Shown piece after piece: positions 15,969-59,215 of a stretch of 64,000 nucleotides of DNA; position 1 is the stretch's first letter; each line of letters opens with the position of its first letter. Position numbers and translations under genes: made by a program. Source of the DNA: an uncultured Pseudomonadota bacterium (GTDB lineage Bacteria > Vulcanimicrobiota > Vulcanimicrobiia > Eremiobacterales > Eremiobacteraceae); NCBI GenBank assembly GCA_963736005.1, contig CAVTNB010000001.1, positions 1,568,001 through 1,632,000 of the forward strand. The letters are read 5' to 3'. The notes under the pieces are model-generated. The model had not been told where the DNA came from and ran no database searches. It worked only from the letters and a program-made list of their open reading frames with translations.

Positions 15969-16352
15969 TTAGTAGCCTGAAACAAGATCGAGGCCAGCAG
16001 CTTCAACGAAAGCTCGGAAGTCGCGATCTCGCGTGAGAAGAGGAACACCTCCATCAAGACAGCTCTGGGCGATCAGTGCATCGCCCAGGCGAGCCTTCCG
16101 TCGAGTAGCCAGTACTTTTGCCCGCAATTCCCCCGCTCGTCGCCAATACCCAGACTCGACGTCGATCATCGGCACGTCAGACAGCGTTTCGACGACCGCG
16201 GTGGGTAGTTCGGCATCGCTCAAAAGCTCTGTGAGCACGACAGGCACCATGAGTACTTGACGATCCGCCAGTGCCCGGTCGAGCATCTCCACATCCTCGC
16301 CTCGGCCGCCTCGAAGGAAAGCAACCCACGTGCTTGTGTCGGCCGCGATCAA
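15969..16352 (-). CDS. vapC: VapC-like PIN-domain toxin
   Basis: ADTSTW, VLTELL, GDALIA, LLTRDRDF. Confidence 0.9.
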   Translation of the reverse strand: MIAADTSTWVAFLRGGRGEDVEMLDRALADRQVLMVPVVLTELLSDAELPTAVVETLSDVPMIDVESGYWRRAGELRAKVLATRRKARLGDALIAQSCLDGGVPLLTRDRDFRAFVEAAGLDLVSGY

Positions 16353-16552
16353 CGGTCAGCCTTTAGCTGTGTCAAGGTACGCTTGAAGCGAACCTTGCCT
16401 CGCAACTGCCGTAGGCGAGCGTAGGTTCGCGATGCAGCCACGAGCTGCAACCCCGTGCAGACTGTCCTCGTGATGCCGACACCGCTGGCCTGTTGGGCCT
16501 TTTCAAGAAGCTGTTGTGGAACGTATACGGTGATCTTTTGTTGCTCGTCCAT
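16349..16552 (-). CDS. VapB-like (RHH) antitoxin
   Basis: KITVYVPQQLL; ends LKADR; overlaps the vapC start. Confidence 0.8.
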   Translation of the reverse strand: MDEQQKITVYVPQQLLEKAQQASGVGITRTVCTGLQLVAASRTYARLRQLRGKVRFKRTLTQLKADR

Positions 16553-16762
16553 TGGATCTCCTAGTATACCATACTTAATGCCAGCATGGAATATGGTACG
16601 TTAAAAACAAGTCACGTGCAAAGCCGACAAAAGAACCCACCACGCGCAATTAGCCCTGTTCGGATGGCTCTGTCCATGCCCGCTGCCTCATTTGGAAAGC
16701 GATATCTTAAGACTCGTAATCCTACGGGGTAATATTTTGCGCTTCCGCACTATACTGAGGTT

Positions 16763-16890
16763 GGCGGAGCAGCCGCAGATGCCGGAAATCACGTTTTCGT
16801 CACGCGGAGGTTCCGTCTGCCGGTGGGCCGCGGCTCGAGGGCAGGCATTTGAGTTCCTACATCGTGCGCCTGCGTCGCTGGCAGGCGCAG
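16763..16890 (+). ncRNA. Unidentified structured ncRNA, copy A
   Basis: -10 TATACT at 16751; stems GGCGGAGC/GTTCCGTC, CCGC/GCGG, CGGAAA-TCACG-TTTTCG; 3' hairpin; homologous to 21586-21725 with compensatory changes. Confidence 0.6.
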
Positions 16891-16902
16891 ATTAGGTTTC
16901 GA

Positions 16903-16973
16903 TTGTTTTTAACACGGTCCGAAGATACACTCTAAAGCTTAGACCGGTCGAGCACTCAAGTGCTCCGTTTTTT
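16903..16973 (+). promoter_or_regulatory. Promoter, about 35-nt transcript and intrinsic terminator
   Basis: TTGTTT-17-TACACT (16903-16931); GAGCAC-TCAA-GTGCTC followed by CGTTTTTT. Confidence 0.5.
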
Positions 16974-17045
16974 CTGTACAACGTATAACGCAATCAATGA
17001 CACTTGCGAACAAAATAGAGCACGTTGTCGCTAGCCGCCCCCAGT

Positions 17046-17348
17046 TTAACTGGCGATAGCGCGAATTTGCCTTGTCCTATTCGCTATTTTATCGCGCGTA
17101 ACGCGGACATCGTAACTCGCCTGCAGCCCAAGCCAGAACGCGGGCGTCGTCCCCGCAAAAAACGCCGATAACCGAAGTGCCGTATCCGCTGTAATTCCAC
17201 GTCGACCTCGGATGATGTCGTTGATGCGTGGCGCATCGGTATGTAGTGCAATGGCCAACTTGCGAGCGTTCAAACCATTTGGGACCATGTACTCTTCGTA
17301 CAGAATTTCACCGGGATGGATGGCCGCCAATTTTCGCTTTTTGCTCAT
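17046..17348 (-). CDS. higA: HigA antitoxin
   Basis: IHPGEIL, RRGITADTALRL, FWLGLQ. Confidence 0.93.
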   Translation of the reverse strand: MSKKRKLAAIHPGEILYEEYMVPNGLNARKLAIALHTDAPRINDIIRGRRGITADTALRLSAFFAGTTPAFWLGLQASYDVRVTRDKIANRTRQIRAIAS

Positions 17349-17363
17349 GCCTCTTTGATTTCC

Positions 17364-17639
17364 TTAGTGGTAGTCGGTAATTTCAACTTGATATGCGTCA
17401 GGTGCATCCCACAGGAAGCAAATGCGCCATTGGGCATTGATGCGAATGCTGAACTGTCCTGCGCGATCTCCCTTGAGCTTTTCGACTCTGCTGCCTGAGG
17501 TGTTAAATTCCTGAAGCGTTGTCGCCTGATTGAGCATTTCAAGCTTTCGGCGTGCCGAGCGTTCGATAGACTGGAATTTGCGAACGGGTTCTTGATTCCA
17601 GAGCGCCTCGGTCTCTGAGTCACGAAACCTTCGGATCAC
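17364..17639 (-). CDS. higB: HigB toxin
   Basis: ARRKL, LKGDRAGQFSIRINAQWRICF, EITDYH. Confidence 0.93.
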   Translation of the reverse strand: MIRRFRDSETEALWNQEPVRKFQSIERSARRKLEMLNQATTLQEFNTSGSRVEKLKGDRAGQFSIRINAQWRICFLWDAPDAYQVEITDYH

Positions 17640-17644
17640 GCCCT

Positions 17645-17673
17645 ATCGTAGCATATATAACATATAATGTAAA
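17645..17673 (-). promoter_or_regulatory. higBA promoter, near-leaderless
   Basis: TTTACA-17-TACGAT just upstream of GTG 17639; AT-rich TATAAC/GTTATA repeats. Confidence 0.6.
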
Positions 17674-17751
17674 GCGTTATATAGATTGGGATTTAAAGCA
17701 TCGCGTAAAGTACCTAAATGCGTGGCAGTCAACCGTCGAAAGCCAAGTAAA

Positions 17752-18096
17752 TCATCCAGACTCTTTGAACTTCGACGGAAGCCCGAATGTTCCGTCGACG
17801 ACTTCAGCGAAGGTCCGTTCCTCACGAAAGATGAGCCGCTTGTTCTGAGCCATGGTGAAATTATCGCGGGCCTCCGGATCAGCCTTCAGTCGCTGCCGGT
17901 AGCGTTCGTAGGACGCGAGACTATCAAAGGCAATCAACCCCCAAGCTATGTCGTTCGTTCCCTCGTGAGGAAGAAAATAGCCGACCAGATGGCCGCCGCA
18001 GCGAGGAATAATGCGGCCCCAGTTTTCGGCGTACTTCTTGAACTCGTCGCGCTGAAACGGATCGATCTGATAGCGGATGAAGCACGTAATCGTCAC
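17752..18096 (-). CDS. NIPSNAP family protein
   Basis: [29 protein letters not shown]. Confidence 0.88.
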
Positions 18097-18200
18097 AAGC
18101 GTGTTCTCCTTGCGGGCGAGAGCCTTTGATTGCCCATCCATGGATTCAAGACGTGTCTGGCCAGGTCCGGTCGCGGGTCCGACCGAACTCGTAGGCTACA

Positions 18201-20975
18201 ATGTCGCCCGGAACTGGGGCCACCCCTCGAGGTGAGAGCCCCGTTACTTTGCCTTCGGGTACTATCACGTTTTTGTTCTCGGATATCGAGGGCTCGACGC
18301 AACGTTGGGAGAGTCACCCCGGGGCGATGAAGCCAGCCGTTGCGCGCCACGAGCAGCTCGTGGCGGCGGTGATGGCGCAGCACGGCGGATATATTTTCAA
18401 GACGATGGGAGATGCGCTCTGCGTCGCCTTCCCGACTGCGCCTGACGCGGTGCGAGCTTCGATTGATGCGCAGCGCGCACTCGCGAACGAAGACTTCTCC
18501 GCCGTAAGCGGCCTACGAGTGCGCATGGGGTTGCATACTGGCTACGCGGAGGAACGTAACGGCGACTATTTCGGCCCCGCGGTCAACCGAGTCGCACGTC
18601 TCATGTCCATCGGCCATGGCGGCCAAGTGTTATTGTCGGCCGTGACGAGGGCGCTCGCGCACAACGATCTACCGCAGGGCTCTTCCCTCACGGACCTCGG
18701 GTCCCAGCGGCTGCGCGATCTGACCGAACCAGAGCAGGTCTGGCAATTGACCATTACCGGACTTGCGAACGAGTTCCCACCGCTGAGATCTCTCGACACG
18801 TTGCCCAACAATTTGCCCATGCAGGTCACGAGCTTTCGTGGCCGCGATCAGGATCTCGAAGACTTGAAAAATCTGATCGGTAAGCATCCGCTCGTAACGC
18901 TGCTGGGGTCGGGAGGTGTCGGCAAGACTCGCCTCGCCCTGCAGACGGGAGCGGAGCTGCTCGACCGCTTCCCCGATGGGGTTTGGCTTGCCGATCTTGC
19001 AACCATAACGGATCCGGAACTGGTCTCGAGCGTCGTCGCCAAAGTTCTGGGGATGAGCCAGCAGGAAGGCCAGCGAGTGGATGAGTCGCTGCCTCACTGG
19101 CTGCGACGGAAGAAGCTGCTCATCATCTTGGACAACTGCGAGCACGTCGTGGAGGCTACAGCCAAGCTGGCCGAAGCGATCATCCGCTCTTGCGCGGATG
19201 TGCGACTTCTCAGTACATCCCGTCAAGCGCTGGGCATTCGCGGTGAGGAAGTCCTCAGGGTTTCTTCGCTTGATGTGCCGCATCGAGTAGCCGATTGCAC
19301 GCCGGAGACGGCGATCACATTTGGCGCCGTTGCGCTTTTCGTCGATCGGGCCCGTTCGGTAGACAAATCGTTCGAGCTGACGGACGATAACGCACCAATC
19401 GTTGCAGACATTTGCCGGCGGCTCGATGGCATACCGCTCGCCATAGAGCTTGCCGCGGCTCGGGTGAAGGTGCTTTCCATCCCCAACTTGGCACAACGGC
19501 TCAACGAGCGTTTCAAGCTTCTCACCGGTGGCAGCCGCGATGCAGTTCCTCGACAGAGGACCTTGAGCGCCCTGATCGACTGGAGCTACGATCTTCTCAG
19601 CGCGCAAGAGCAGAAGCTGTTCTTGCGTGCGGGAGTCTTCGCCGGCGGTTTCAGGCTGGACGCTGCTACGGCCGTCTGCGGCGAGGGCATGGATGAGATC
19701 GATATCTTGGATCTGCTCTCTTCGTTGAGCGACAAGTCTCTGGTCGTTGCGGACACCGGCGGCGAGCAAGAGCGATACCACCTTTTGGAATCAACGCGCG
19801 CCTACGCTTTGGAGAAGCTGACCGCGTCGGGTGAACGCGAACGCCTGAGTCGCCGCCATGCGGAGTATTTCCGCGATCAAGCCCAGGCGGCGGATGAGCG
19901 CTATGGGATAGGTTCGACCTATGTCTGGCTTGCCAACGCGGAACTCGAGCTCGACAACTATCGTGCGGCGCTCGAATGGTCCATCACAGAGAACCACGAC
20001 ATGATCGTGGGCGGCGCGATCGCGGGGGCATTGGAGCAGGTCTGGTATCGCGGTGGGCTCACCACCGAAGGCCGCTACTGGATCTCCGCAGCGCTCGAAC
20101 GGGGCAACTATGCCGGACAGCCTTTGATCGCGGCGCGCTTGTGGCGCGCTCTTGGGTTCATCCGGTCGGGCAAGCCAGCATACGAAGCGGCGGAGCGAGC
20201 ACGCGTACTCTACGAGGAAGCTGGCGATAAGTGGGGAGCCGCTCGTGCTAAGGGGGACGCGGCGTTTGCATTGAGACAGATGGGTCGGCTTGACGAAGCA
20301 GTTGAGCTCCTTACGCAAGCGATAGACACATCGCGCTCCTTGGGAGACAAATTTGGAGTTCTCATGGGCCTGAGCACGAGAGGCGGATGCGCGTACAACC
20401 TCGGTGACTTCAAGTTGGGTCGAGAATATTATTCGCAGGCCCTCGCGCTGTCCAAAGAGCTAGCGAACGACATGCAGACCTCGTTTGTCCTGTCGAACCT
20501 TGCCGAACTTGAATTTGCAGATGGCCATGCCGATGAAGCGTTGCGGTCGGCAAAAGAGCTTGCAGAACAGCGCACACGCTCGCAAAACTTGACCAACCTC
20601 GCGACCAGCAAGACCAATGTTGCTGCCTATTGTATCTGGCTTGGTCAACTCGATGAAGCTTGCCAGTCGGCCAGGGAGGCGCTTTATATCTCGCGATCGA
20701 TAACAGCGCTCTACTCCACTTCGATCGCCTGCCAGCACCTCGGGCTTATCGCCAGCCTCCGCGGCCGGCCTCAGGTGGCAGCTTCGCTTCTTGGGTTTGT
20801 CAACGAGCAGTACCGCAAAATCGAGACCGAACGCGAACCAACCGAAAAATTGTGCTACGACAAGTTCATGGCATCGCTGCGGGAACAGCTCAGTGAAACG
20901 GAGATCGAAAAGCTTCTGGCCGAGGGCGCTCGATGGACAGAGGATAAGGCGATCGAGGTTGCGCTCGAGCTCTAA
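18201..20975 (+). CDS. Class III nucleotide cyclase, NB-ARC/STAND ATPase and TPR signalling protein
   Basis: FSDIEGST, KTMGDA, DYFGPAVNRVAR; GSGGVGKTRL, LDNCEH, LDGIPLAIELAAA; C-terminal helical repeats. Confidence 0.93.
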   Translation: MSPGTGATPRGESPVTLPSGTITFLFSDIEGSTQRWESHPGAMKPAVARHEQLVAAVMAQHGGYIFKTMGDALCVAFPTAPDAVRASIDAQRALANEDFSAVSGLRVRMGLHTGYAEERNGDYFGPAVNRVARLMSIGHGGQVLLSAVTRALAHNDLPQGSSLTDLGSQRLRDLTEPEQVWQLTITGLANEFPPLRSLDTLPNNLPMQVTSFRGRDQDLEDLKNLIGKHPLVTLLGSGGVGKTRLALQTGAELLDRFPDGVWLADLATITDPELVSSVVAKVLGMSQQEGQRVDESLPHWLRRKKLLIILDNCEHVVEATAKLAEAIIRSCADVRLLSTSRQALGIRGEEVLRVSSLDVPHRVADCTPETAITFGAVALFVDRARSVDKSFELTDDNAPIVADICRRLDGIPLAIELAAARVKVLSIPNLAQRLNERFKLLTGGSRDAVPRQRTLSALIDWSYDLLSAQEQKLFLRAGVFAGGFRLDAATAVCGEGMDEIDILDLLSSLSDKSLVVADTGGEQERYHLLESTRAYALEKLTASGERERLSRRHAEYFRDQAQAADERYGIGSTYVWLANAELELDNYRAALEWSITENHDMIVGGAIAGALEQVWYRGGLTTEGRYWISAALERGNYAGQPLIAARLWRALGFIRSGKPAYEAAERARVLYEEAGDKWGAARAKGDAAFALRQMGRLDEAVELLTQAIDTSRSLGDKFGVLMGLSTRGGCAYNLGDFKLGREYYSQALALSKELANDMQTSFVLSNLAELEFADGHADEALRSAKELAEQRTRSQNLTNLATSKTNVAAYCIWLGQLDEACQSAREALYISRSITALYSTSIACQHLGLIASLRGRPQVAASLLGFVNEQYRKIETEREPTEKLCYDKFMASLREQLSETEIEKLLAEGARWTEDKAIEVALEL

Positions 20976-21002
20976 CCGCCAAAGAAGCTAGCCGAGTCGT
21001 AA

Positions 21003-21503
21003 ATGAGTGGTTTTGATAAGCGCGAGACAGCCCTTAGACGGGTGAAAGATGAAGACTTCGCTTGGATGTTGGGGGGCGAGCCCGTTTGTCGCGCCGGCCT
21101 TAGGTTGCCTCCCGGAGGCGTCGATGATCCGGGTACGCTTAGTCACGTTCGTGACATTACAAAGCGCGTTCACGCTCAGGGCTGCAGTAGCGCCTGGATG
21201 ATTGTTTCAGGCGATGAGGTAGTTGGCTTGTGCGGCTATCACCACGCGCCAAAAAATGGCATGGTAGAAATCGGTTACAGCGTCGCAGGTAGCCGTCGAC
21301 GTTGCGGTCACGCTTCGCGCGCGGTTGAAGCAATGATTGTTGAGGCGATGGCCGAGGGCGTCCGGGTGCTAAAGGCCGAGACTTCCACCACAAATTACGC
21401 CTCCAACCGGGTCCTCGAGAAGAATGGTTTCGTACCATCCGAAACACGCCTCGATGCGGAAGACGGCGAGGTAATTACCTGGCGAAGGACCCTTAGGTCG
21501 TAG
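21003..21503 (+). CDS. GNAT (RimJ/RimL-like) acetyltransferase
   Basis: VEIGYSV, RRRCGHA, NYASNRVLEKNGF. Confidence 0.88.
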   Translation: MSGFDKRETALRRVKDEDFAWMLGGEPVCRAGLRLPPGGVDDPGTLSHVRDITKRVHAQGCSSAWMIVSGDEVVGLCGYHHAPKNGMVEIGYSVAGSRRRCGHASRAVEAMIVEAMAEGVRVLKAETSTTNYASNRVLEKNGFVPSETRLDAEDGEVITWRRTLRS

Positions 21504-21585
21504 CCCGGCATTCGGCCGCGAGCGCTTACTTAAGACTGGTAAAACCCCTGGGTTACAGCTCGCGCTTTCGTACTATACTTGAGAT

Positions 21586-21725
21586 GGCGGAGCAGCTGTT
21601 CGTGCCGAAAAATCACGTTTTCGTTCACAGCAGTCGTTTCCGTCTTGGCGGGCGGGATCAGCCTAAGGGCAAACGTAGATGCCTTTCATCGCGTCTGGTC
21701 GCGCCTGCGTCGGTGGCAGGCGCAG
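21586..21725 (+). ncRNA. Unidentified structured ncRNA, copy B
   Basis: -10 TATACT at 21574 with the same spacing as copy A; stems GGCGGAG/TTTCCGTC, GCTGT/ACAGC, CGAAAA-ATCACG-TTTTCG; same 3' hairpin. Confidence 0.6.
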
Positions 21726-21796
21726 ACTATCTAGAAGGCGGGCGCAAGTATCGGGCCGGAGATCTCGGAAATCCCTAAAGCATATTGGGACTAGTA

Positions 21797-22075
21797 CTAA
21801 GAGATGGCTTTGACCTCATCCAGCTTGACACCGCGGCCAGCCCGAAGACTCTTCCGCGCCTTTTCGACACGCATCAAAAACCGTGGATCATTTTCAAGCC
21901 GGTAGTCAAACCACTCGTCATCCGATTCGAAACCGATCAAAACACCCGCAGGCCTTCCATGGCGCGTGATTACGATTTCTTCCTTTGCTGCCTCGCGAAG
22001 AAATCGTGACAAATCATCCTTCATCTCAGACAGCGGAACCTTCCTTATTCTGGTTCGGCGAATTGTGCTAGCCAT
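21797..22075 (-). CDS. Phd/YefM antitoxin
   Basis: LSEMKDDLSRFL, IVITRHGRPAGVL. Confidence 0.85.
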   Translation of the reverse strand: MASTIRRTRIRKVPLSEMKDDLSRFLREAAKEEIVITRHGRPAGVLIGFESDDEWFDYRLENDPRFLMRVEKARKSLRAGRGVKLDEVKAIS

Positions 22076-22330
22076 TCTGTTGCCTCCGACTTTATTATGA
22101 TCGCCAGAATCTCAACCTTGGGTCTTTGACATCGTAGAACACTCGCGCCTCATCAGCGCGTAGCCTATACTCTGGTCGTCGAATACCCCGAAGCCTTTTG
22201 ATCCGGCTACGACTTTGTTTTCGCGGCTCGTGCTTTAGATGGGTTTCGATCGATGCAAGGACTTTAGCTCGAACATTCGCTTTGAGCCTTCTCAGATCTT
22301 CGACTGCGGAAAGGGATTACTTCGTGTCGC
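22045..22330 (-). pseudogene. RelE/ParE toxin pseudogene
   Basis: AVEDLRRL...RIKRLRG...EYRLRADEARVFYDV, frameshift near 22120, then KVEILAIIIKSEATEWL...*; no start codon. Confidence 0.8.
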
Positions 22331-22395
22331 GACGGCAGGTTCCCGAACTCGGCTCCGTTCGTGCTTGAGCGCAGTCGCCAAGCGAACATTGATTT

Positions 22396-22896
22396 CTAGT
22401 ACGTTCTCCGCGTACAGGACGCACCGTGCATGCTGCAGACTTGGAGATAGAGGCGGTCGACGAGGTCCCATTCTCTTGCGACCGTTGGGGTGTGCGGCAG
22501 CGACTCGATGATCTGCAGCGTCCCGCCGATATCGCCTGCCCCTTCAGACCAGGGTAAGAATCCGTAATGCATGCCGACTGCAGTCGCGTCCGCAAAGGAC
22601 ACCGAATAGAGCAGTCGAGGCGCACTGTCATCGCACGACTTGAACTCTTGTGCACCCTCCAGCGCGTAGTGGTTTATCGTGTTCCACGAAACCTTCGCCG
22701 AGTAGTCGTTGCTCGAACCCTCGTAACTTTGGACGTCCTTCGCCTTTGCGCTGATCGCGTTGGCGTCAGCAGCCAAATTTTTGCAGCCAGCATTGGCCGG
22801 CTGAGCAAAGAGTACCGTGCCGGCACATATCAAGAGCACAATGATGAAAGTAGAGCTTTGCAGCCTCATGCTTGAATTATAGGCCCATCCAATCAC
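22396..22896 (-). CDS. Hypothetical secreted protein
   Basis: Signal peptide MRLQSSTFIIVLLICAGTVLFAQPANA (start probably 22869). Confidence 0.6.
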   Translation of the reverse strand: MIGWAYNSSMRLQSSTFIIVLLICAGTVLFAQPANAGCKNLAADANAISAKAKDVQSYEGSSNDYSAKVSWNTINHYALEGAQEFKSCDDSAPRLLYSVSFADATAVGMHYGFLPWSEGAGDIGGTLQIIESLPHTPTVAREWDLVDRLYLQVCSMHGASCTRRTY

Positions 22897-23122
22897 AACG
22901 GAGATTGACCGCAGTCACCGTTTTCGGCCATTGGGGTACGATGGCACAAAAGCCTATCGGTAGCCATCTCCTTCAGAAGACCTTGGCCCAGAAGGTCGCG
23001 CCTGCCTAAAAGGCAGGCGACGACTTAGTATCACTTTGGTAAGGCCTAGTGTGACCCGGAATGATTCCAACGGCGACCTGTCACCAATAATTCTATTGCG
23101 TCGATGCTTACCGGGCGAGCTC

Positions 23123-23152
23123 AAAAAAGAAAACCACCCGCATAACGGGTGG
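23123..23152 (-). terminator. Intrinsic terminator
   Basis: CCACCCG-TTATG-CGGGTGG followed by TTTTCTTTTTT. Confidence 0.9.
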
Positions 23153-23171
23153 GTGCTAGTAGCAGTCTCTC
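23123..23171 (-). ncRNA. Antisense small RNA (putative antitoxin) to tRNA-like RNA 1
   Basis: Starts 7 nt after TATAAT; first 17 nt GAGAGACUGCUACUAGC pair with the RNA encoded at 23294-23310; ends in a terminator. Confidence 0.8.
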
Positions 23172-23178
23172 GCGGGTC

Positions 23179-23207
23179 ATTATAGCACATACACAAGCGT
23201 CGGGCAA
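23179..23207 (-). promoter_or_regulatory. sigma70 promoter with extended -10
   Basis: TTGCCC-17 bp-(TGC)TATAAT. Confidence 0.85.
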
Positions 23208-23256
23208 GATGGATTCACGCAGTCCTCACCGTCGTGAACCCTCCGCTGCGCGGAGC

Positions 23257-23322
23257 TGGAGGCAGCGGGGATCGAACCCGCAGCAGACGGTTTGAGAGAC
23301 TACTACTAGCCAGCTTGCCCCC
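23257..23322 (-). tRNA. Non-canonical D-armless tRNA-like RNA: Ala identity (G3.U70, A73) with CUC (Glu) anticodon loop; no encoded CCA
   Basis: GGGGGCA/UGCCUCC-A acceptor; GCGGG-UUCGAUC-CCCGC T arm; CU-CUC-AA 7-nt loop; 66 nt total. Confidence 0.78.
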
Positions 23323-23398
23323 AGCACCATCCTTATCGCGCACGGTTAAGCGAACGTCAAGCCTGAAAACTAACGAGCAGCTGGGCGTCGGCGTGGGA

Positions 23399-24133
23399 CT
23401 ACCGATTGTTCATGCGGTCGAAGATCCGGCGGCGATCTTCGTACGACGCATGCATGGCTTCTTCGGAAAAACCATACGACACCTCGATGCTTCCGGCGCG
23501 GAGTTGCGTAAACGCGGCGTCCGCAAATTCGTCGAGGGGCGTGGCCCATGTGTGGAGGCCTGGACCGCCAAGATCCGTGTTGACTGCGGGCGGTGCGATC
23601 TCGATGACCTCGACGGGCGTTGCGGCGAGCTGTCGGCGCAAGGAAAGCGTAAACGAAGCGATCGCAGCCTTGGTTGCGCAGTACACCGGTGTTGCGGCGA
23701 GCGGCACATACGCAAGCCCTGACGAGATGTTGATGATCGCAGGTTCCTGTTGTTTGCGAAGGTGCGGCAGCAAGAGCATGCTTAGGTGAATTGGTGCTTC
23801 TAAGTTGATCGCGATCTCATTGTGGCATGACGACCAATCGATGTCATCATTCAATGACAGCCACTGTTGAATGCCGGCGTTATTGACGAGAATGTCGAGT
23901 TTTGGGAAGGCTTTGATCGTCCAGGCCGCGAGTTGTTTGCGCTGGTCGGGATCTGCGACATCGCACACACGGGTGTGCAGTGAAGGATGAGCCTCGTGCG
24001 CCTCACGGAGCTTATCCTCGCGCCTGCCGCAGATAATGACCTCGTTGCCTTCGGTGAGGAAACGCTTGGCAAAGGCAAAGCCAATGCCGCTCGCGCCGCC
24101 CGTCAGGAGCATGGTGTGTCCGGTCAGTTTCAT
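23399..24133 (-). CDS. SDR family oxidoreductase (DltE-like)
   Basis: TGGASGIG, LVNNAG, YCATK. Confidence 0.92.
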   Translation of the reverse strand: MKLTGHTMLLTGGASGIGFAFAKRFLTEGNEVIICGRREDKLREAHEAHPSLHTRVCDVADPDQRKQLAAWTIKAFPKLDILVNNAGIQQWLSLNDDIDWSSCHNEIAINLEAPIHLSMLLLPHLRKQQEPAIINISSGLAYVPLAATPVYCATKAAIASFTLSLRRQLAATPVEVIEIAPPAVNTDLGGPGLHTWATPLDEFADAAFTQLRAGSIEVSYGFSEEAMHASYEDRRRIFDRMNNR

Positions 24134-24288
24134 GGGAAGAACTACGCCGCTCGGGGCAGGTTTCCGCTACTACGTTCGCCGGCGGGCAGGACGACCCGCG
24201 CATGCCGTACGCCTGGACGTAGCAAGGCGGGCGCCGTTCTCGCTCAAGAGATCCTCGCCGCAGCGATCCGAAGGCGAAGCCTTGAGAC

Positions 24289-24702
24289 CTAAATAGCGAT
24301 CGACGTGTGGCGTTTTGGACGCCCACCCTTTTTCCCGTTGGCTCTGGCGGCTGCTGATTTAGCTTTGCTTCTTGTACTGCCAGCCTTGGCGTACGGATCG
24401 TCACCAGTTACTGCGCGGCGCACCAGTCCTGCAACCGATATGTTGAGATCGTGCTCGGGCAGCTCAATGGCATCGCCGACGCGCGATAGCCTCAGTTTCT
24501 TGAGATCGGGCTTTGTAACATCGGCCAAGCTAGTAATCGACCTCACGGGTATCTTTAGCTCGGTGCGATTTCGCAGCCTAAGGTAGATATGACTGCTGTT
24601 TGGAAGAAAGCTCATGATGACCGCATCATTAGCTTGATTAAGCCTCCCGCGCTCGCGAGCTTTCGCGATCCCTTTTGCATCAAAACCTTTTATTCTAACC
24701 AT
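24289..24702 (-). CDS. DUF2442-family antitoxin-like protein
   Basis: GDAIELPEHDLNISV; C-terminal KSAAARANGKKGGRP; lies downstream of the DUF4160 remnant. Confidence 0.72.
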   Translation of the reverse strand: MVRIKGFDAKGIAKARERGRLNQANDAVIMSFLPNSSHIYLRLRNRTELKIPVRSITSLADVTKPDLKKLRLSRVGDAIELPEHDLNISVAGLVRRAVTGDDPYAKAGSTRSKAKSAAARANGKKGGRPKRHTSIAI

Positions 24703-24824
24703 AATAATTTCTCCATGCAGCCCAGGATATCGGCGCCGTCTTTACGGACATGCACGTGCGGTGGCGGGTGATCGTCGGTGTACACTAATACGTGATAGCC
24801 TTTGTGCTGTGCGACGGTGGGCAT
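24690..24824 (-). pseudogene. DUF4160-family toxin with internal deletion
   Basis: MPTV...YTDDHPPPHVHV, then an abrupt frame change to a C-terminal-like WAAWRNYG*. Confidence 0.7.
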
Positions 24825-24905
24825 GCGTGTACAGATCAGTATAACCTATCACGCTAGGTTTTTGCAAGATCTTTTGGATTTCCATTTTGACGCGCCTGCT
24901 TAAAA

Positions 24906-25047
24906 GGCGGGCGCAATTATCGCGCTGGAGATCTCAGAAATCTCAAAAGCATGTCGGCTCTAACACTAAGAAGTGGCTTTGACCGCGGCCAGTCCGAAGA
25001 CTCCCACCCGCCTTTTCGACGCGTACCAAGAACCTTGGGTCATTTTT
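24906..25047 (-). repeat. Degenerate copy of the 3' end and downstream flank of the 21797-22075 antitoxin gene
   Basis: Aligns by eye to 21737-21894 (GGCGGGCGCAA..GGAGATCTC..GGCTTTGACC..CCGCGGCCAG.CCGAAGACTC..CGCCTTTTCGAC). Confidence 0.8.
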
Positions 25048-25060
25048 GGAAATCGCGGGA

Positions 25061-25471
25061 TTAGCAAACGATGCAGCGGATATATTTGGTCGCCTTCGCG
25101 TATTCGTGAATCGGACTGTCTCTGGTTAAAAGCCGCGCGCCGTACGCAGCGGCCGTGGCGATCAAAATGCAGTCCGCAGGATCACCCTGAAATTTTCCTG
25201 GTAGCTCGGTTGCTGCCAAAGCAATAGCGGGCGTCAACGTGGCAGTCAGCACGCCCGGCTGGGCAAACAGTGCGCGAATGTAATCTTGTGCAGGGGTCGC
25301 GAGAATGAGCCGCCCCTTGCGCACGAGCATGCCTATTTCCCACGCGCTAATTGGCGAAAGCAGAAGCTCACCGCGCTTGGCGGCATCATCCACAGCTCCG
25401 GCGATAGCTGGTGCTATTTTACCCTCGACCGCCCAAACTGCAGCATGCGTGTCAAGCAAAATTGGGTTCAT
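25061..25471 (-). CDS. vapC: VapC-like PIN toxin
   Basis: LLDTHA, SPISAWEI, DPADCILIATA, LLTRD. Confidence 0.92.
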   Translation of the reverse strand: MNPILLDTHAAVWAVEGKIAPAIAGAVDDAAKRGELLLSPISAWEIGMLVRKGRLILATPAQDYIRALFAQPGVLTATLTPAIALAATELPGKFQGDPADCILIATAAAYGARLLTRDSPIHEYAKATKYIRCIVC

Positions 25472-25757
25472 CAGCTTTCCAGTGGGCGCTGACCGGACTC
25501 ACGAGGTCCTTTTCCTTGATTGTCAGGCCGGTAAGAGAGCCGCAGAAACCGCTAGATCCTGCTCGCACTGGCACGAGTCGAGCGACCGGCTTACGGTGCT
25601 TTGTAATCACGATTTCTATTCCTGATCGGCCAACTTCGTCCATAAGTTGGAGGCAGCGCGCTTTGAACTCCCCCGCCCCGACCTGCCTTGATCTCAACAT
25701 AAGGAATGAAATGGCTGACTTCTGGGGTTTGCGGTCCTTGTGTGAGTTTCTGGTCAT
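25452..25757 (-). CDS. Phd/YefM antitoxin
   Basis: GAGEFKARCLQLMDEV, VITKHRKPVARLVP. Confidence 0.9.
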   Translation of the reverse strand: MTRNSHKDRKPQKSAISFLMLRSRQVGAGEFKARCLQLMDEVGRSGIEIVITKHRKPVARLVPVRAGSSGFCGSLTGLTIKEKDLVSPVSAHWKADEPNFA

Positions 25758-25983
25758 AATTTATGACCATATTGTAGCACACGTCAGCTGAGCGCTACAA
25801 GGCCCTTCAAGGCGCTCGCAGAGCGTCGCCAGGCTTTCCGAGCGCCTGCCCTACCGGGCATGCGCTACGACGGCTCTTCCTCGCCAACCAGGGAGTAGGC
25901 AGCGAACGTTGGAACGCTGGGGATTCCACCGTGGAGCAGCCGTGGTGGAGAACGACGGCAAGGGATTCGAAGTGGGAAAAATC

Positions 25984-26265
25984 GTGTGCAGAAACATCAA
26001 AACTCTCTTTAATTTTAAACCGGCAGCAACGCGCGACGAAATCCACGCGGCTTCGGAACAATTTGTTCGCAAGATCAGCGGCTTTTCAAAACCCTCAAAA
26101 GCAAATGAAGCTGCGTTCGCGACCGCAGTCGATGAGATCACCGCCGCCTCCGCTCGCTTCCTCGTAAAGCTGCAGACTAGCGCCACGCCGCGAAATCGAC
26201 GAGTGGAAGCGTTGAAAGCCAAGAAGCGTGCGGCTCAGCGATTCGGGACCAACCGAGCAGCTTGA
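25984..26265 (+). CDS. DUF2277 family protein
   Basis: MCRNIKTLFNF...EIHAASEQFVRKISG. Confidence 0.85.
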   Translation: MCRNIKTLFNFKPAATRDEIHAASEQFVRKISGFSKPSKANEAAFATAVDEITAASARFLVKLQTSATPRNRRVEALKAKKRAAQRFGTNRAA

Positions 26266-26266
26266 G

Positions 26267-27235
26267 ATGAAACAAACGACTGCCTCAATGATGAACGCTC
26301 TTGTGGTCGATAGCTATGGCGATCCACGGAATGCCCGCATGGCCGAGGTCGAAACGCCGAAGGCGAAAGATGGTCAATTGCTCGTGCGGATACACGCTGC
26401 GGGCGTCAATCCATTTGACTATAAGTTAATCACCGGAATGGCCAAGGATTGGATGCCTCTCACCTTTCCGTATATTCCTGGCATGGACGGAGCCGGCATC
26501 GTTGCTGACGTGGGCGCCGGTGTGCAAGGTTGGCGCAGCGGCGATGCGCTGCTCGCGCAATTTCCCCGTGGGACGTTTGCACAATATGCAGTGATCTCTG
26601 CTAAGGATAAGAAGCTAGCGAGGAAGCCCGACGCATTAGACTTCGAGCATGCTGCCGCCATTCCCGAGGCGGGGCTAACGGCAAAGACGATGGTGCAAGC
26701 CGCCGGAATACATAAAGGGCAAAAAGTTTTGATTGTGGGTGCGAGCGGCGGTCTTGGACTCTTTGCGACACAATTGGCAAAGGCGGAGGGCGCTTGGGTG
26801 ATCGCGACAGGCACCGCTGCCGATGCTGATTACCTGCGACATCTCGGCGCGGATGTTATTATCGACTACAAATCTGGCGATACTATCGCCCAAACACTTT
26901 CGCGATATCCCGATGGCATCGACGTCGTGCTTGATGTGATTAGTACCGGCGACGCTGTTGTTCGCGACGCCGACGTCCTGCGCGCAGGCGGAACTATCGT
27001 GTCGTCGCTCGGTGGTCCAAGCCAAGACGCTTTCCCCGCGGGCGTGACAGTTCGCTACATTCAGCTAACGGCACAGGATGGCGATCTGGAGGAACTTGCA
27101 AGGCGCGCCGCAGACGGCACACTCCGCATAGAGATTGGGCAGATCTACGCCCTTTCGCAAGCGGCGCAGGCTTTGGCGGACCTGACCGATCCCGCAAAAC
27201 ACACGCGCGGCAAACTCGTCGTTCGCGTTCCGTAA
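26267..27235 (+). CDS. NADP-dependent MDR-family oxidoreductase
   Basis: AAGVNPFD, PGMDGAG, GASGGLG, RGKLVV. Confidence 0.9.
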   Translation: MKQTTASMMNALVVDSYGDPRNARMAEVETPKAKDGQLLVRIHAAGVNPFDYKLITGMAKDWMPLTFPYIPGMDGAGIVADVGAGVQGWRSGDALLAQFPRGTFAQYAVISAKDKKLARKPDALDFEHAAAIPEAGLTAKTMVQAAGIHKGQKVLIVGASGGLGLFATQLAKAEGAWVIATGTAADADYLRHLGADVIIDYKSGDTIAQTLSRYPDGIDVVLDVISTGDAVVRDADVLRAGGTIVSSLGGPSQDAFPAGVTVRYIQLTAQDGDLEELARRAADGTLRIEIGQIYALSQAAQALADLTDPAKHTRGKLVVRVP

Positions 27236-27254
27236 GGGTAGCACGAACGCAGCG

Positions 27255-28517
27255 CTAGCCGGTAAGCACGGACTTGAGGGCGCGCACCGTTTCGTCGACT
27301 TCCTCGATCGTGTTGTACTGCGCCAAGCCGATCCGCACGACGCCATCGTCTTCGTCGAGCCCAAGACTGCGCGCCACCTCCAGCGCAAAGTTGTGGCCCG
27401 ACCACACAAAGATGCCGCGTTTGGCAAGTTCGCGCGCAATGTCGGCAGACCGGCGCGAGGAGTGCGTCACCGAAACGGTTGGAACGCGATCCTCCATGTG
27501 GTCTGAGTCGGTGATACCTTGCACGGTGATGCCCGACAAAGCCGTGACACCGTCGATGAGCCGGCTTGTCAGCTCCCGTTCCCAAGTCGTAATCTGCTCG
27601 AACGCATTGACGATGCGTGCTCGCCTGTCTTGTGCAGGCGCGACAAGATTTCCAAGCCACTCAAAGTGCTCAACCGTTGCAATCGCCGCCGCCATCAATT
27701 CCAGTTGAGGAGTGCCAACCTCGAAGCGATCGGGAAGTTTGTCGGGAACCGGCCGGACCTTGTAGGCATACATATCGCGCAGCAAGTCTTCGCGACCCCA
27801 CAGCACCCCCAGGTGCGGACCGTAAAACTTGTAGGCAGAGCATGCCAGAAAATCGCAACCAAGAGCTGACGCGTCAATCAATCGGTGCGGTGCCAATTGG
27901 ACCGCATCGACGTACACCAGCGCTCCAGCCGCCCTGGCTTTGGCCGCCAGTGCCCGAACGTCATTGATCGACCCGGTGAGATTGCTTGCGTAGTTGAGCG
28001 CGACAACGCGGGTGCGCTCCGAGAGAATCGCGTCGAGTGCCTCCGGCTCTATTCGCCACGTGCTGTGATCAAACGGCAACCAGCGCACCACCATGCCGCG
28101 CTCCTCGGCCATCGCGAGCCACGGACCGATGTTGCCCTCGTGATCCATTCGGGTCAAGATCACTTCATCGCCGGGCCGAAATGTACGACCGAGACTGCGC
28201 GAAAACGTGTAGGTCAGACTCGTCATGCTCGGGCCGACGACGATTTCACGTTCGCTCCCAGCGCCGAGGAAGTCAGCGAGCGCACGGTACGCACCGTAAA
28301 ACATTTCGTCGGCTGCCAGGCTCGACGCAAAAAAGCCACCCAGATTTGCGTTGTTGACGCGAAAGAAGTGGTCGATCGCCTCTATCACCCGGCGCGGCAC
28401 TTGCGTGCCAGCCGGATTATCGAGATAGATCCGTGCCTGGCCATTATCGCCAACAGCAAGCGAAGGAAACTCCGCGCGGATCGACTCGATCGGAAACGTA
28501 CTCGTAAAAGACCTCAC
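27255..28517 (-). CDS. Cysteine desulfurase-like class V aminotransferase
   Basis: YLDNPAGTQVP, DHEGN, VDAVQ, CSAYKFYGPH. Confidence 0.9.
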   Translation of the reverse strand: MRSFTSTFPIESIRAEFPSLAVGDNGQARIYLDNPAGTQVPRRVIEAIDHFFRVNNANLGGFFASSLAADEMFYGAYRALADFLGAGSEREIVVGPSMTSLTYTFSRSLGRTFRPGDEVILTRMDHEGNIGPWLAMAEERGMVVRWLPFDHSTWRIEPEALDAILSERTRVVALNYASNLTGSINDVRALAAKARAAGALVYVDAVQLAPHRLIDASALGCDFLACSAYKFYGPHLGVLWGREDLLRDMYAYKVRPVPDKLPDRFEVGTPQLELMAAAIATVEHFEWLGNLVAPAQDRRARIVNAFEQITTWERELTSRLIDGVTALSGITVQGITDSDHMEDRVPTVSVTHSSRRSADIARELAKRGIFVWSGHNFALEVARSLGLDEDDGVVRIGLAQYNTIEEVDETVRALKSVLTG

Positions 28518-28549
28518 TGGACTAACCTCCGGGGTGCAGCCAATTTGCG

Positions 28550-30274
28550 GTGACGGGCGAGGTCGCCTCTAGATCGTTCGTGAATCCTCTTGCTAGCATG
28601 TCAAGGCGCAATGTGCCCACATCATCACGCGCTTCTCGGCAACTGGGTTATCTTGGTGCCGTTGCTGCCCTTGTTGCGGTGCTCGCAGGGTGCACCAAGG
28701 TTCAAACCAGCGTGGGCGGTCACACAGGCAATTCCTGGACAGTGCACGGGGTCTTGCGCGTGGGTTCCTATGAGGACCTTGACACCCTCAACCCGATTCT
28801 TTCCATTCAGCAGTTTGTGAGCGACGTTTCGCAGATGGTGTATTCGGGTTTGATCGATTACGATGACCACGGCAACGCGGTCCCTGACGTTGCACTTGTT
28901 GTGCCGACGGAGGCGAACGGGGGTATCAGCCCCGATGGACGGATAGTCACGTATCACTTGCGCCGCGGCGTAAAGTTCTCCGATGGCGTGCCGTTGACGA
29001 GTGCGGATGTTAAGTATACGTGGCAGCAGATCATGAATCCCAACAACAACGTTGGATACCGCTATCCTTACGACGATGTGGCCTCTATCGACACACCGGA
29101 TGACGCCACCGTCGTCGTGCACCTCAAAGCGCCCCTGGCGGCATTTGTCACGGCGTTCATGTGCAACGGCACTCTCGGCTCCATCGTGCCCAAGCATCTG
29201 CTCGCGCAGTATGCCGACCTCAACCACGTGGCGTTCAACACAAAACCGATTGGGAGCGGCCCATTCGTCGTAGAGCGTTGGGAGCCGGGATCGCTTTTGA
29301 CGCTGCGGGCGAATCCTTTGTATTGGCGCGGGCCGCCCAAGCTCCATAAAATTCTCTACCGGATCATTCCCAATCAAAACACACTGTTGATGAATGTCCT
29401 GGCCCACGATGTTGACCTCTACTACGACGCGCCCGAAGTCCAATTCGCAACTCTCAACAAGCTCAACGGATACCGGGTTACGCACGTGCCCAACATGAAC
29501 TACGAAGAAATCGTCTTCAATTGCGCGCGCTCGCCGTTCACGGACGTTCGAGTGCGCCAAGCAGTTGCATACGCGATTGATTGGCAAGTGCTGGTTCGCG
29601 ACGTTTATTTCGGGCTCGACCCGCCTGGAATGGCAGACACTCCCCCAGCTTCGTGGGCCTACGACCAAAGCGTCCTTCCCTACCCACACGATCTCTCGAA
29701 GGCGCGCGCGCTTCTGCGCGCCGCAGGATGGATTTCTGATTCGAGCGGTGCGGTGGTTCGCAATGGACAGCCGCTACGGGTCGATATGGTCACCGTCGCG
29801 GGCATAACATCACGGGCAAAGGTGGAAGAGCTCGTTCAGCAAGACTTGCGGGCCGTCGGCATCGCGCTCGACATTCACAACTATCCGGCCGATCTAATAT
29901 TTGCCAGCTACGGCTCGGGCGGTATCTTGGCGCGCGGGCAATTCGACCTCGCGCTGTACGGGTGGACATATTCCTATCCGGACCCTGACGACACGGTCAC
30001 CCTTGGACCGGGCGACGTCCCTCCGCATGGAGACAACTATGCGCACTTCGTCGACGCGAAGATTGGGGCATGGCAGCAAGCTGGACAACTCAGCTACGAT
30101 CGGACGAAGCGGCGGCCATACTACGTGCTCATCCAGCACCGCATCCACGACGTCGTGCCGTTTCACACCATCGTCTGGCGTTCCAACTTCGACGCGGTCA
30201 ACACCGACCTGCAGAATTTCAAGCCGGTACCGGTCGTCAGCGACTTTTGGAACTCATGGGAATGGCAGATCTAG
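28550..30274 (+). CDS. Peptide ABC transporter substrate-binding lipoprotein (family 5)
   Basis: Lipobox LAGC; TLNP, KFSDGVPLTSADV, IGSGPF, DVRVRQA. Confidence 0.9.
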   Translation: MTGEVASRSFVNPLASMSRRNVPTSSRASRQLGYLGAVAALVAVLAGCTKVQTSVGGHTGNSWTVHGVLRVGSYEDLDTLNPILSIQQFVSDVSQMVYSGLIDYDDHGNAVPDVALVVPTEANGGISPDGRIVTYHLRRGVKFSDGVPLTSADVKYTWQQIMNPNNNVGYRYPYDDVASIDTPDDATVVVHLKAPLAAFVTAFMCNGTLGSIVPKHLLAQYADLNHVAFNTKPIGSGPFVVERWEPGSLLTLRANPLYWRGPPKLHKILYRIIPNQNTLLMNVLAHDVDLYYDAPEVQFATLNKLNGYRVTHVPNMNYEEIVFNCARSPFTDVRVRQAVAYAIDWQVLVRDVYFGLDPPGMADTPPASWAYDQSVLPYPHDLSKARALLRAAGWISDSSGAVVRNGQPLRVDMVTVAGITSRAKVEELVQQDLRAVGIALDIHNYPADLIFASYGSGGILARGQFDLALYGWTYSYPDPDDTVTLGPGDVPPHGDNYAHFVDAKIGAWQQAGQLSYDRTKRRPYYVLIQHRIHDVVPFHTIVWRSNFDAVNTDLQNFKPVPVVSDFWNSWEWQI

Positions 30275-30381
30275 GCAGTTTTCGAATGCTAAGATTGGCT
30301 TTGACGTCCGGTTTGACGCCACGGCCAACCCAAAGACTCTTCCGCGGTCGTGGACACCAACGTATGGATATCGGCGCTCCC

Positions 30382-31259: not shown

Positions 31260-31265
31260 GTCGCT

Positions 31266-31298
31266 GACAATTGTCCCATGAATTTAGACAATTGTCAA
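31266..31298 (-). promoter_or_regulatory. xre-res promoter with twin palindromic operators
   Basis: TTGACA-17-GACAAT overlapped by two perfect GACAATTGTC palindromes (31266-31275, 31287-31296). Confidence 0.75.
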
Positions 31299-31426
31299 GT
31301 CGACGACGAACATATGACATCCCTTCTTGCGTCAGGGTTTCGCGCCTGCCACGAAGGCAGGCGCGGGTGAGAGCATCTTGACAACCGAACGTTTTGAAAT
31401 CTCGATGTGATTTAACGGAGATCATT

Positions 31427-59179: not shown

Positions 59180-59186
59180 GTTGGCG

Positions 59187-59215
59187 ATGGTAGCATATTT
59201 AGGACCTTGATGCAA
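59187..59215 (-). promoter_or_regulatory. sigma70 promoter with extended -10
   Basis: TTGCAT-17 bp-(TGC)TACCAT; same geometry as 23179-23207. Confidence 0.8.

Follow-up and report, generated by a model that had tools for sequence, protein, structure and literature searches.

The 64-kb stretch of contig CAVTNB010000001.1 analysed here (the window) carries, on its minus strand, a module of two adjacent RNA genes, one for a tRNA-like RNA and one for a small RNA (sRNA) antisense to it. Copy 1 of the module lies at 23123-23360 and copy 2 at 59133-59335. We are highly confident of the anatomy: two RNA genes and one antisense pairing that would unfold the decoding half of the tRNA-like RNA and leave its acceptor/T half free. 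Our best reading of its function, which we favour tentatively and rate a little below an even chance, is an RNA-only toxin-antitoxin-like pair with a mis-sense tRNA as the putative toxin. This reading draws on the private seed of each sRNA, multiple divergent copies, patchy spread among genomes, a weak promoter set beside a strong one, asymmetric decay of the two genes, the absence of alanine anticodons, and a second scaffold of the same design.

On re-reading, every element that the initial annotation had listed for copy 1 was present at its minus-strand position. The features are given below; P1 and P2 are the promoters of the tRNA-like gene and the sRNA gene, and f1, f2 and similar handles denote families of genomes.

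23355-23360, minus strand: P1 -35 box TTGACG, read from the sequence; a CTTGAC/CTTGTC box lies at equal distance upstream of most of 73 modules
23332-23337, minus strand: P1 -10-like box GATAAG, 17 nucleotides (nt) past the -35 box and 9 nt before G1
23257-23322, minus strand: tRNA-like RNA of 66 nt; 30.2 bits with the Rfam tRNA model and 69 bits with our R3 model; its cloverleaf co-varies in 24 f1 sequences
23294-23310, minus strand: target of the sRNA in the tRNA-like RNA (nt 13-29), corresponding to the long-range helix predicted by RNAalifold
23241-23255, minus strand: trailer hairpin 1 (CUCCGC-GCA-GCGGAG), 1 nt past the discriminator-proximal G; a hairpin is likewise placed in other f1 modules
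23211-23240, minus strand: trailer hairpin 2, with a loop partly complementary to the anticodon arm (GGACUGC with GUAGUCU)
23179-23207, minus strand: P2, TTGCCC-17 nt-TATAAT with TG before the -10 box; 10/12 matches in the consensus scan
23123-23171, minus strand: sRNA of about 49 nt, with ends inferred from sequence; the 17-nt seed (23171-23155) starts 7 nt after the -10 box and is followed by a terminator stem-loop (23152-23134) and a U run (23133-23123)

The sRNA target spans the 3' side of the D-arm remnant, the 5' strand of the anticodon arm and the loop up to CUC. The initial annotation had described this complementarity (16 Watson-Crick pairs and one G.U), and it was confirmed: nt 1-17 of the sRNA pair without interruption with 23310-23294. 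The GAG at the start of the sRNA, which had been given significance as a codon, is simply the complement of the loop. As a control, 46 true tRNAs of the source genome were compared with their own downstream 175 nt, and the longest run was at most 12 nt. When the first 24 nt of the copy 1 sRNA were searched against the 2.84-Mb assembly, the tRNA-like gene of copy 1 gave a complement of 17 nt and the next best site 11 nt.

BLAST against relatives recovered modules in which the arm and seed sequences differ from those of copy 1 and yet arm still matches seed, and these served as starting modules for a covariance model, R1, built on the arm-sRNA helix and the T arm. A covariance-model search had been proposed in the initial annotation as a check on whether anticodon and seed co-vary; across homologues arm and seed do, and complementarity is kept rather than lost. 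RNAalifold, run unprompted on nine modules, predicted a 16-pair helix between arm and sRNA, and 20 of 24 predicted pairs showed compensatory changes. R1 gave 87 matches from 72 loci. In their alignment, which was fitted to the model and so favours pairing (the RNAalifold result is unfitted), 94.5% of model pairs were paired and 23/24 pairs showed compensatory change. The covariation score was 0.609 compared with 0.168 in shuffles, none of 500 shuffles reaching 0.609, and pairing dropped to 38-44% when the partner was slid by 1-3 columns.

The pairing was also largely specific to each module. The module's own sRNA region formed the most stable duplex in 43/73 modules, and was among the top three in 57/73, and for 38 of the 72 distinct modules no other region gave as long a run; the exceptions to a cognate-best duplex were mostly close relatives with common seeds. 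RNAduplex run with the full 175 nt downstream had a high background (non-cognate mean -33.5 kcal/mol), from which the copy 1 energy of -33.8 kcal/mol is not distinguished, and uninterrupted run length was therefore used as the measure instead. Such runs reached at least 13 nt in 59/72 modules. Runs with one mismatch allowed were noisy, true tRNAs reaching 17. Both the arm-sRNA helix and the cloverleaf described below are conserved, and the RNA therefore has two mutually exclusive states, a tRNA fold and an sRNA duplex.

Co-variation of this kind bears on an explanation in which the sRNA is a working regulator with outside targets and the tRNA-like RNA exists to titrate it, as a dedicated sponge or decoy. 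The survival of sRNA genes where the tRNA-like gene is gone would fit that explanation. A seed directed at an outside target should stay constant, however, and the seeds differ even between syntenic modules and co-vary with their own arm. The best genomic complement of the copy 1 sRNA is its own tRNA-like gene, other sites reaching at most 11 nt, and a sponge would have no need for the invariant alanine identity set. We judge the sponge improbable.

The initial annotation had proposed two separately promoted RNAs, and both P1 and P2 are conserved among relatives. It had placed the P1 -35 box TTGACG correctly and left the -10 box open; comparison with relatives identifies the latter as GATAAG (23337-23332). 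By-eye reading of the 73 listed modules gave, for most of them, a P1 of CTTGAC or CTTGTC, about 17 nt, and (C)GTGAT(A/G)NG ending 9-10 nt before G1. The P1 -10-like box lacks the final T and was therefore missed by the sigma-70 scan, and P1 looks weaker than P2. The family consensus of P2 is TTGC[G/A]A, 17 nt, TA[T/G]NNT, with TTG, TA and the final T invariant in 9/9 modules. Its spacer is 17 nt in 61/73 modules, and complementarity begins 4-7 nt after the -10 box in 44/73. Between 23050 and 23450 the consensus scan found P2 as the sole promoter-like site (shuffle mean 0.2), and the sRNA terminator was the single terminator found (shuffle mean 0.4). The terminator scan detected none between the tRNA-like gene and the sRNA, and P1 transcripts may thus read through into the sRNA. 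No open reading frame (ORF) inside the module is kept between the two window copies or among relatives.

The lack of an intervening terminator would also suit a single P1 transcript that alternates between the cloverleaf and the long-range helix, serving as a t-element-like processing or stability signal with no separate sRNA. In line with this, the full 200-nt stretch folds into the long-range helix (z = -4.0), and trailer hairpin 2 holds a second short complement. The hairpin-2 site has an exact complement of at least 9 nt (9-11 nt) to the 5' strand of the anticodon arm and the loop in 12/21 f1 modules, with a weak cognate excess (8.95 vs 7.6 nt; the cognate best or tied in 7/21); its loop may be a second, cis-encoded anti-anticodon element. 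Against a single transcript, the sequence of P2 and its 17-nt spacing are conserved, and the complement starts at a set distance past the -10 box in many modules. Orphan units retain P2, sRNA and terminator, and there is nothing else on the transcript in need of release. We consider this explanation quite improbable.

The second line of evidence concerns the tRNA-like RNA itself. The acceptor of copy 1, GGGGGCA/UGCCUCC, contains G3.U70 and is followed by A73, with no encoded CCA; the T arm is GCGGG-UUCGAUC-CCCGC, and the anticodon-type loop is CUCUCAA, with the triplet CUC. ARAGORN and Rfam were two checks that the initial annotation had suggested. ARAGORN called no tRNA in the window. Copy 1 marginally passed the Rfam tRNA family RF00005 at 30.2 bits against a gathering score of 29, and beyond that match nothing in the 64 kb reached a gathering score. 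In 20 relatives' loci RF00005 at E <=0.01 matched no module, its single match being a true tRNA-Pro that adjoins the L033 module; ARAGORN called eight tRNAs at module positions in seven of 20 loci, and it typed several relatives' modules as tRNA-Ile, Val, Asp, Gly or Arg. Rfam scans of the window and the relatives' loci yielded no family for the sRNA or for the whole module.

The cloverleaf co-varies in both main families. In 38 f2 sequences, 95.3% of cells were paired compared with 37-54% when slid, and each of the four helices showed compensatory change; in 24 f1 sequences, 91.3% were paired and 18/23 pairs were compensatory. The acceptor/T branch is 7/5, backed by covariation, and 73/87 matches keep at least six of the seven acceptor pairs. 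Measured against a canonical cloverleaf (7-bp acceptor, 4-bp D stem with a 7-11-nt loop, 5-bp anticodon stem, 7-nt loop with U33 and R37, variable region of at least 4 nt, 5-bp T stem), the acceptor, T arm and 7-nt loop conform, whereas the decoding half is less regular. The RNA had been called D-armless, which did not hold: copy 1 keeps a 2-bp remnant, and its relatives have D stems of 3-4 bp with a GG loop (family loop 4-5 nt). The anticodon-type arm consists of 5 bp and 3 bp around an internal loop (7-8 bp in the family), and the variable region is 0-2 nt. Among 60 seven-nucleotide loops, A37 was present in 54, the near-universal U33 in 42 and C33 in its place in 17.

G3.U70 is the main identity element for alanyl-tRNA synthetase (AlaRS), and bacterial AlaRS ignores the anticodon. 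This signature, pointed out in the initial annotation, proved near-invariant in the family (38/38 f2 and 22/23 f1 sequences), and A73 was invariant in both alignments. G1-C72 and G2-C71 were fixed or nearly so; in f2, acceptor pairs 1-4 were fixed and pairs 5-7 co-varied. The near-invariance of G1-C72, G2-C71, G3.U70 and A73 while pairs 5-7 co-vary indicates that alanine identity is under selection. The bases after A73 are mostly GCC, so CCA is not encoded. Under the usual rule for an AlaRS substrate (G3.U70 in a regular acceptor helix, with A73), the family and copy 1 qualify and copy 2 does not, and by such identity rules the tRNA-like RNA is a predicted alanine acceptor. Its loop is never that of a tRNA-Ala. 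The triplets at positions 34-36 (n = 60, three rows being misaligned) were GAU in 23, GUC in 18, GAC in 10, GCG in two, and ACC, CUC, GUA and GCC in one each; an alanine anticodon (NGC) occurred in 0/60 loops. The codons matching these triplets rank 2-9 of 61 in the source genome by a rough count.

An alanine acceptor of this form resembles transfer-messenger RNA (tmRNA), and a mini-tmRNA is another conceivable explanation: a tRNA-like domain without a message that, alanylated and bound to SmpB, would inhibit or modulate ribosome rescue under the restraint of the sRNA. The modules have in common with the tmRNA family RF00023 the GGGG...CUCC-A acceptor with G3.U70 and a tmRNA-like T arm. In 6/20 loci the Rfam tmRNA model matched end to end with its middle deleted (27-31.9 bits, E 4e-9 to 5e-7), several modules have the same acceptor as the source genome's tmRNA (GGGGGCG/CGCCUCC-A), and true tmRNA genes from metagenomes match the scan pattern built on T arm and acceptor. 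All of these scores are nevertheless below the gathering score of 47. The likeness is confined to the acceptor and T arm, which tRNA-Ala also has, and the modules possess a true D stem and, in the anticodon-type arm, a 7-nt loop containing A37, but no message-like domain, tag ORF or pseudoknots. The source genome has its own tmRNA elsewhere, and comparison of the tRNA-like RNA with that genome's tRNA-Glu(CUC), tRNA-Ala and tmRNA (including its 3' end) revealed no likeness beyond the alanine acceptor. The Arg-type scaffold described below cannot be a tmRNA mimic. A mini-tmRNA therefore appears very improbable.

Modules were widespread and patchy. R1 matched 17/32 genomes of family f1, with 41 matches and up to six per genome. 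Across sampled genomes of the class, one class of the Eremiobacterota/Vulcanimicrobiota, it matched 62/151 (15/31 in f1, 46/116 in f2 and 0/3 in f3); these tallies include G008 and G129, with one match each, whose loci are left out of the alignments and other counts. The module was absent from two of three other genomes of the same genus. Genomes held up to 6-7 divergent copies, each with a private sRNA. A phylum-wide sample gave low-scoring R1 matches outside the class, among them matches in families f6, f11 and f18. Four of the f6 loci were inspected; these four proved to be true tRNA-Glu genes with a terminator and were rejected as false positives.

A pattern made of the T arm and acceptor was scanned more broadly through named genomes and metagenomes; its counts are lower bounds (at least), and 80 loci of each scan were searched with R1. 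Among the matches listed for named genomes, 65/80 loci bore names of Eremiobacterota/Vulcanimicrobiota (WPS-2); of the remaining 15, some came from these organisms under other labels and others were true tRNAs. The pattern was common in soil and peat metagenome contigs among the matches listed, and there were 0 matches in viral contigs. ARAGORN identified eight true tmRNA genes and six tRNA-Ala genes in 31 metagenome loci. Since the pattern matches true tmRNA and tRNA-Ala genes, it is not specific to the family. The true tmRNA genes from soil metagenomes (L303, L288, L297, L298 and others; tags ADHQDLALAA and ADNEGLALAA) have the T arm, the acceptor 3' strand and a non-encoded CCA ('...CUCCA GCC') in common with the modules.

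The two genes of a module do not decay alike. Models restricted to the tRNA-like part, and so unaffected by the sRNA, found 28 matches of at least 44 bits in 32 f1 genomes, clearly apart from true tRNAs, which scored at most 39.3 bits. All 26 f1 matches of at least 50 bits stood in full modules; copy 2 and a truncated remnant made up the other two. Of the 14 strong matches in five f2 genomes, 13 had a complementary sRNA 43-58 nt downstream, and in the fourteenth the pair had drifted. Conversely, an intact-looking unit of promoter, sRNA and terminator stood beside a truncated, deleted or absent tRNA-like gene at 12 loci; copy 2, the orphan of G000 and the counterpart of copy 1 in G002 belong to this set. 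With modest sample sizes and related genomes, this asymmetry is the pattern expected if loss of the sRNA alone were not tolerated and loss of the tRNA-like gene were.

Copy 2 illustrates such decay. The initial annotation had reported that the whole architecture recurs there with a different anticodon. The layout, the GUC loop and the copy's own matching sRNA were borne out; a working second copy was not, its acceptor being lost. Its features are as follows.

59270-59335, minus strand: decayed tRNA-like gene; T arm and GUC loop intact, 5' acceptor strand mutated
59187-59215, minus strand: P2, TTGCAT-17-TACCAT, below the threshold of the promoter scan
59133-59181, minus strand: sRNA, with seed GACAGGCCAAUACGG at 59179-59165 and terminator at 59162-59143

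Three of the seven acceptor pairs are left, without G3.U70; the R3 score is 44.2 bits, and RF00005 gave no match on copy 2. The seed still matches the tRNA-like arm of this copy, in a predicted helix that contains one G.U and one bulge. The counterpart of copy 2 in G002, a genome of the same genus, carries further deletions. The counterpart of copy 1 in that genome (L002, G002:C5:790959-791098) retains the sRNA half at 89% identity; where the tRNA-like gene would be, there is instead the 3' end of a gene for a homologue of the 166-aa protein encoded downstream of copy 1 (window 22396-22896), a sign of local rearrangement. A third unit lies outside the window, at G000:C1:579307-579505, and is an orphan sRNA gene with a TATAAT promoter, seed and terminator; upstream there is coding-like DNA and no tRNA-like gene, and tRNA-Pro(GGG) lies about 1 kb away. 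In L245 (G051:C3:689300-691000) five Ala-type modules stand in tandem at intervals of about 310 nt; one of them lacks the 5' half, and in one pair drift has abolished the complementarity.

Decay of copy 2 and several relatives would be expected if the element were a chance arrangement, such as a dying tRNA copy or integration-site remnant beside an unrelated small terminator unit, and one module pair (L053) indeed flanks an integrase gene. A wide family in which both folds co-vary and both promoters are conserved speaks against chance, and an integrase was found as only one of 30 neighbouring proteins scanned. This explanation is scarcely credible.

A second scaffold has the same design. One R1 match, L100 (1474-1700), is a tRNA of canonical 7/5 form in which G73 is present and G3.U70 absent. 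The closest paralogues within its genome are tRNA-Arg genes: identity to tRNA-Arg(CCU) is 80%, and over 27 nt of the T arm and acceptor 3' strand it matches tRNA-Arg(UCU) and tRNA-Arg(UCG) exactly. Its loop triplet, GCU, belongs to the serine codon family. BLAST with the L100 module found eight more Arg-type bodies in other genomes (L409, L410, L412, L413, L414, L418, L419 and L422, at about 1340-1770 in each), with the triplet GAC (Val), followed by TTGACG-17-TAGAGT and an sRNA. The Arg-type sRNAs have an uninterrupted complement of 13-20 nt to the D-stem 3' strand and the anticodon arm, compared with runs of 7-10 nt for the true tRNA-Arg genes in those loci. The helix was 81% paired vs 32-41% when slid, with seven compensatory pairs, in a MAFFT alignment that has some poorly aligned rows. 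At all nine Arg-type loci the body carries GCU or GAC and has its own promoter and an sRNA antisense to its D/anticodon region. What the two scaffolds have in common is a tRNA body whose type differs from that of its anticodon, together with an antisense sRNA of its own. This is not explained by a tmRNA mimic or an alanine donor.

L417:2219-2400, L424:2136-2320 and L415:905-790 hold true tRNA-Ser(CGA) genes followed by a terminator and then a 13-18-nt complement to their own variable arm. These complements have no obvious promoter ahead and could be another anti-tRNA unit or an inverted fragment.

We suggest the following mechanism for the module as an RNA-only toxin-antitoxin-like pair. The first gene, from the weak-looking P1, would give a tRNA-shaped RNA with an alanine identity top half and a non-alanine triplet loop. 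The second, from the near-consensus P2 and ending at its own terminator, would give an sRNA of about 50 nt, complementary at its 5' end to the D arm of the first RNA, to the 5' strand of its anticodon arm and to its loop. The tRNA-like RNA would be trimmed by RNase P and a 3' nuclease, receive CCA and be alanylated by the anticodon-blind AlaRS. Free, it would harm the cell, most likely as a mis-sense decoder that inserts alanine at GAG (copy 1), or alternatively by tying up translation factors. An excess of sRNA would open the D and anticodon arms into a duplex of 17-40 bp, leaving the acceptor/T half intact and blocking decoding, and the duplex would probably expose the tRNA-like RNA to a double-strand RNase. 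Once sRNA synthesis stops, the stable tRNA fold would outlast the sRNA, as in type VIII-like toxin-antitoxin logic. Transcription, processing, charging, decoding, toxicity and the relative stabilities of the two RNAs are all steps that we infer from sequence.

Several observations weigh against this mechanism. The non-canonical arm, the short D arm, the variable region of 0-2 nt and C33 in 17/60 loops make ribosomal decoding uncertain. Valyl-, isoleucyl- and aspartyl-tRNA synthetases (ValRS, IleRS and AspRS) might compete with AlaRS, and GAC or GAU with A73 could bring cognate charging. Because only a few different loop triplets occur, and these largely by inheritance, their correspondence to frequent codons carries little weight. 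Persistence of sRNA genes without a tRNA-like partner could mean that the sRNA has a role of its own. Conserved synteny, housekeeping neighbours and the lack of viral matches would suit a stable chromosomal function as well as an addiction module.

A stable function could take the form of a regulated, non-toxic special-purpose tRNA, either an alanine donor outside decoding (cell-envelope or peptide chemistry) or an agent of adaptive mistranslation, with the sRNA as its off-switch. The conserved alanine identity set and cloverleaf are compatible with such a tRNA, some modules are syntenic across families among housekeeping genes, and the odd anticodon arm and C33 speak against efficient decoding. 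It is harder to reconcile with the patchy spread, with up to 6-7 divergent copies per genome, each with a private sRNA, and with the frequent decay of the tRNA-like gene while the sRNA stays. No partner enzyme gene is conserved nearby, and an alanine-donor role does not fit the Arg-type scaffold of the same design. We consider a non-toxic tRNA unlikely. The wider proposal, that the phylum keeps families of RNA-only addiction or suicide modules whose poison would be a mis-sense tRNA (an Ala- or Arg-type body with a foreign anticodon), is put forward as a possibility that we rather doubt.

Among known systems, the type VIII toxin-antitoxin pairs SdsR/RyeA and CreT/CreA are alike in that both partners are RNA (here by prediction), no protein is encoded and the toxin acts on translation. 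RyeA and SdsR overlap on opposite strands, whereas the putative antitoxin here is a same-strand, separately promoted neighbour that would pair in trans, and the putative toxin has the shape of a tRNA and carries identity elements for aminoacylation. Type I systems with a nearby, non-overlapping antisense sRNA (tisB/istR-1, shoB/ohsC and zor/orz) are similar in their short, strongly promoted adjacent sRNA with limited 5' complementarity and pair-specific seeds; their toxins are small peptides, and the modules have no conserved ORF. Natural mis-sense tRNAs, such as the bacterial tRNA-ProX type and eukaryotic non-Ala tRNAs bearing G3:U70, show a similar clash of identity set and anticodon, and we know of none with a dedicated co-evolving antisense sRNA gene. 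The t-elements and mascRNA-type modules have an acceptor/T-arm mimic cleavable by RNase P or RNase Z, but they have no anticodon arm and lie inside longer transcripts, whereas the tRNA-like gene of a module has its own promoter and combines an anticodon-type arm with an antisense RNA private to it.

CreT toxins are reported to sequester tRNAs (PMC8501985), and CreA is reported to act via Cascade as a transcriptional repressor; no Cas genes are involved in the tRNA-like/sRNA modules. Irregular tRNAs of soil bacteria have been found near toxin-antitoxin genes, some with G3:U70 and the non-alanine anticodons GCG and UUA (Mukai et al. 2017, PMC5389517). Amber-suppressor versions of these allo-tRNAs were active in E. 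coli, two variants were lethal, and a link to toxin-antitoxin systems was suggested (PMC5389517). The allo-tRNAs have an 8/4 or 9/3 branch in contrast to the 7/5 of the modules, and the word 'antisense' does not occur in that paper (PMC5389517). The 7/5 design, by which the initial annotation had set the module apart from CreTA, SdsR/RyeA and allo-tRNAs, is supported by covariation. Our literature search, with subscription journals and bioRxiv supplements outside its scope, found no such pair of tRNA-like RNA and anti-tRNA sRNA. The module would combine an RNA-only, type VIII-like logic with a new kind of putative toxin.

If the toxin-antitoxin-like reading is correct, a tRNA would corrupt the proteome once a short-lived antisense RNA is no longer made, and a dangerous decoder would be kept safe by a 50-nt antisense RNA alone. 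The modules would then provide the first natural tRNA acting as a toxin of such a system and the first dedicated, co-evolving anti-tRNA sRNA, and would add mischarging or mis-sense tRNAs to toxin-antitoxin biology as a new kind of toxin. They would also explain odd 'extra' tRNA genes with clashing identity in soil metagenomes and supply synthetic biology with an off-the-shelf means of switching a tRNA on and off, programmable by sequence. Even if non-toxic, a conserved tRNA-like RNA with a private anti-tRNA sRNA is a layout not found in Rfam or the searched literature. The phylum has a cultured member, Vulcanimicrobium alpinus (PMC9758169), which makes the idea directly testable.

The genomic neighbourhood of the modules was also assessed. 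Copy 1 lies within a stretch rich in toxin-antitoxin and mobile genes (15969-32735), and an aldehyde dehydrogenase gene adjoins copy 2.

15969-16352 and 25061-25471, minus strand: PIN
21797-22075, minus strand: Phd/YefM
30382-30846, minus strand: RES, with an Xre-type antitoxin at 30846-31259, minus strand
31797-32735, minus strand: tyrosine integrase, 8.5 kb from copy 1
59403-60857, plus strand: aldehyde dehydrogenase

The setting of copy 1 in a toxin-antitoxin island, as the initial annotation had it, holds for the PIN, Phd/YefM and RES-Xre stretch; it is not a trait of the family, in which neighbours are mostly housekeeping genes (GroEL, DnaB, NusA, solute-binding proteins, dehydrogenases and similar). 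No neighbouring protein was conserved across the relatives' loci. The genes flanking copies 1 and 2 are mutually unrelated, and a leader or attenuator role was rejected because the downstream genes of the two copies are unrelated. An att-site remnant of a tRNA or tmRNA was likewise rejected: the sequence differs from the resident tmRNA and tRNAs, integrases are rare among the neighbours, and that of the window is distant from copy 1.

An aldehyde dehydrogenase gene also adjoins the modules in L052, L058, L086 and L106, which belong to another family. This neighbour recurs across families, which indicates long retention of at least one chromosomal site. In L086 and L106 the D arm of the tRNA-like RNA is complete and canonical, G3.U70 is present and the triplet is GCC.

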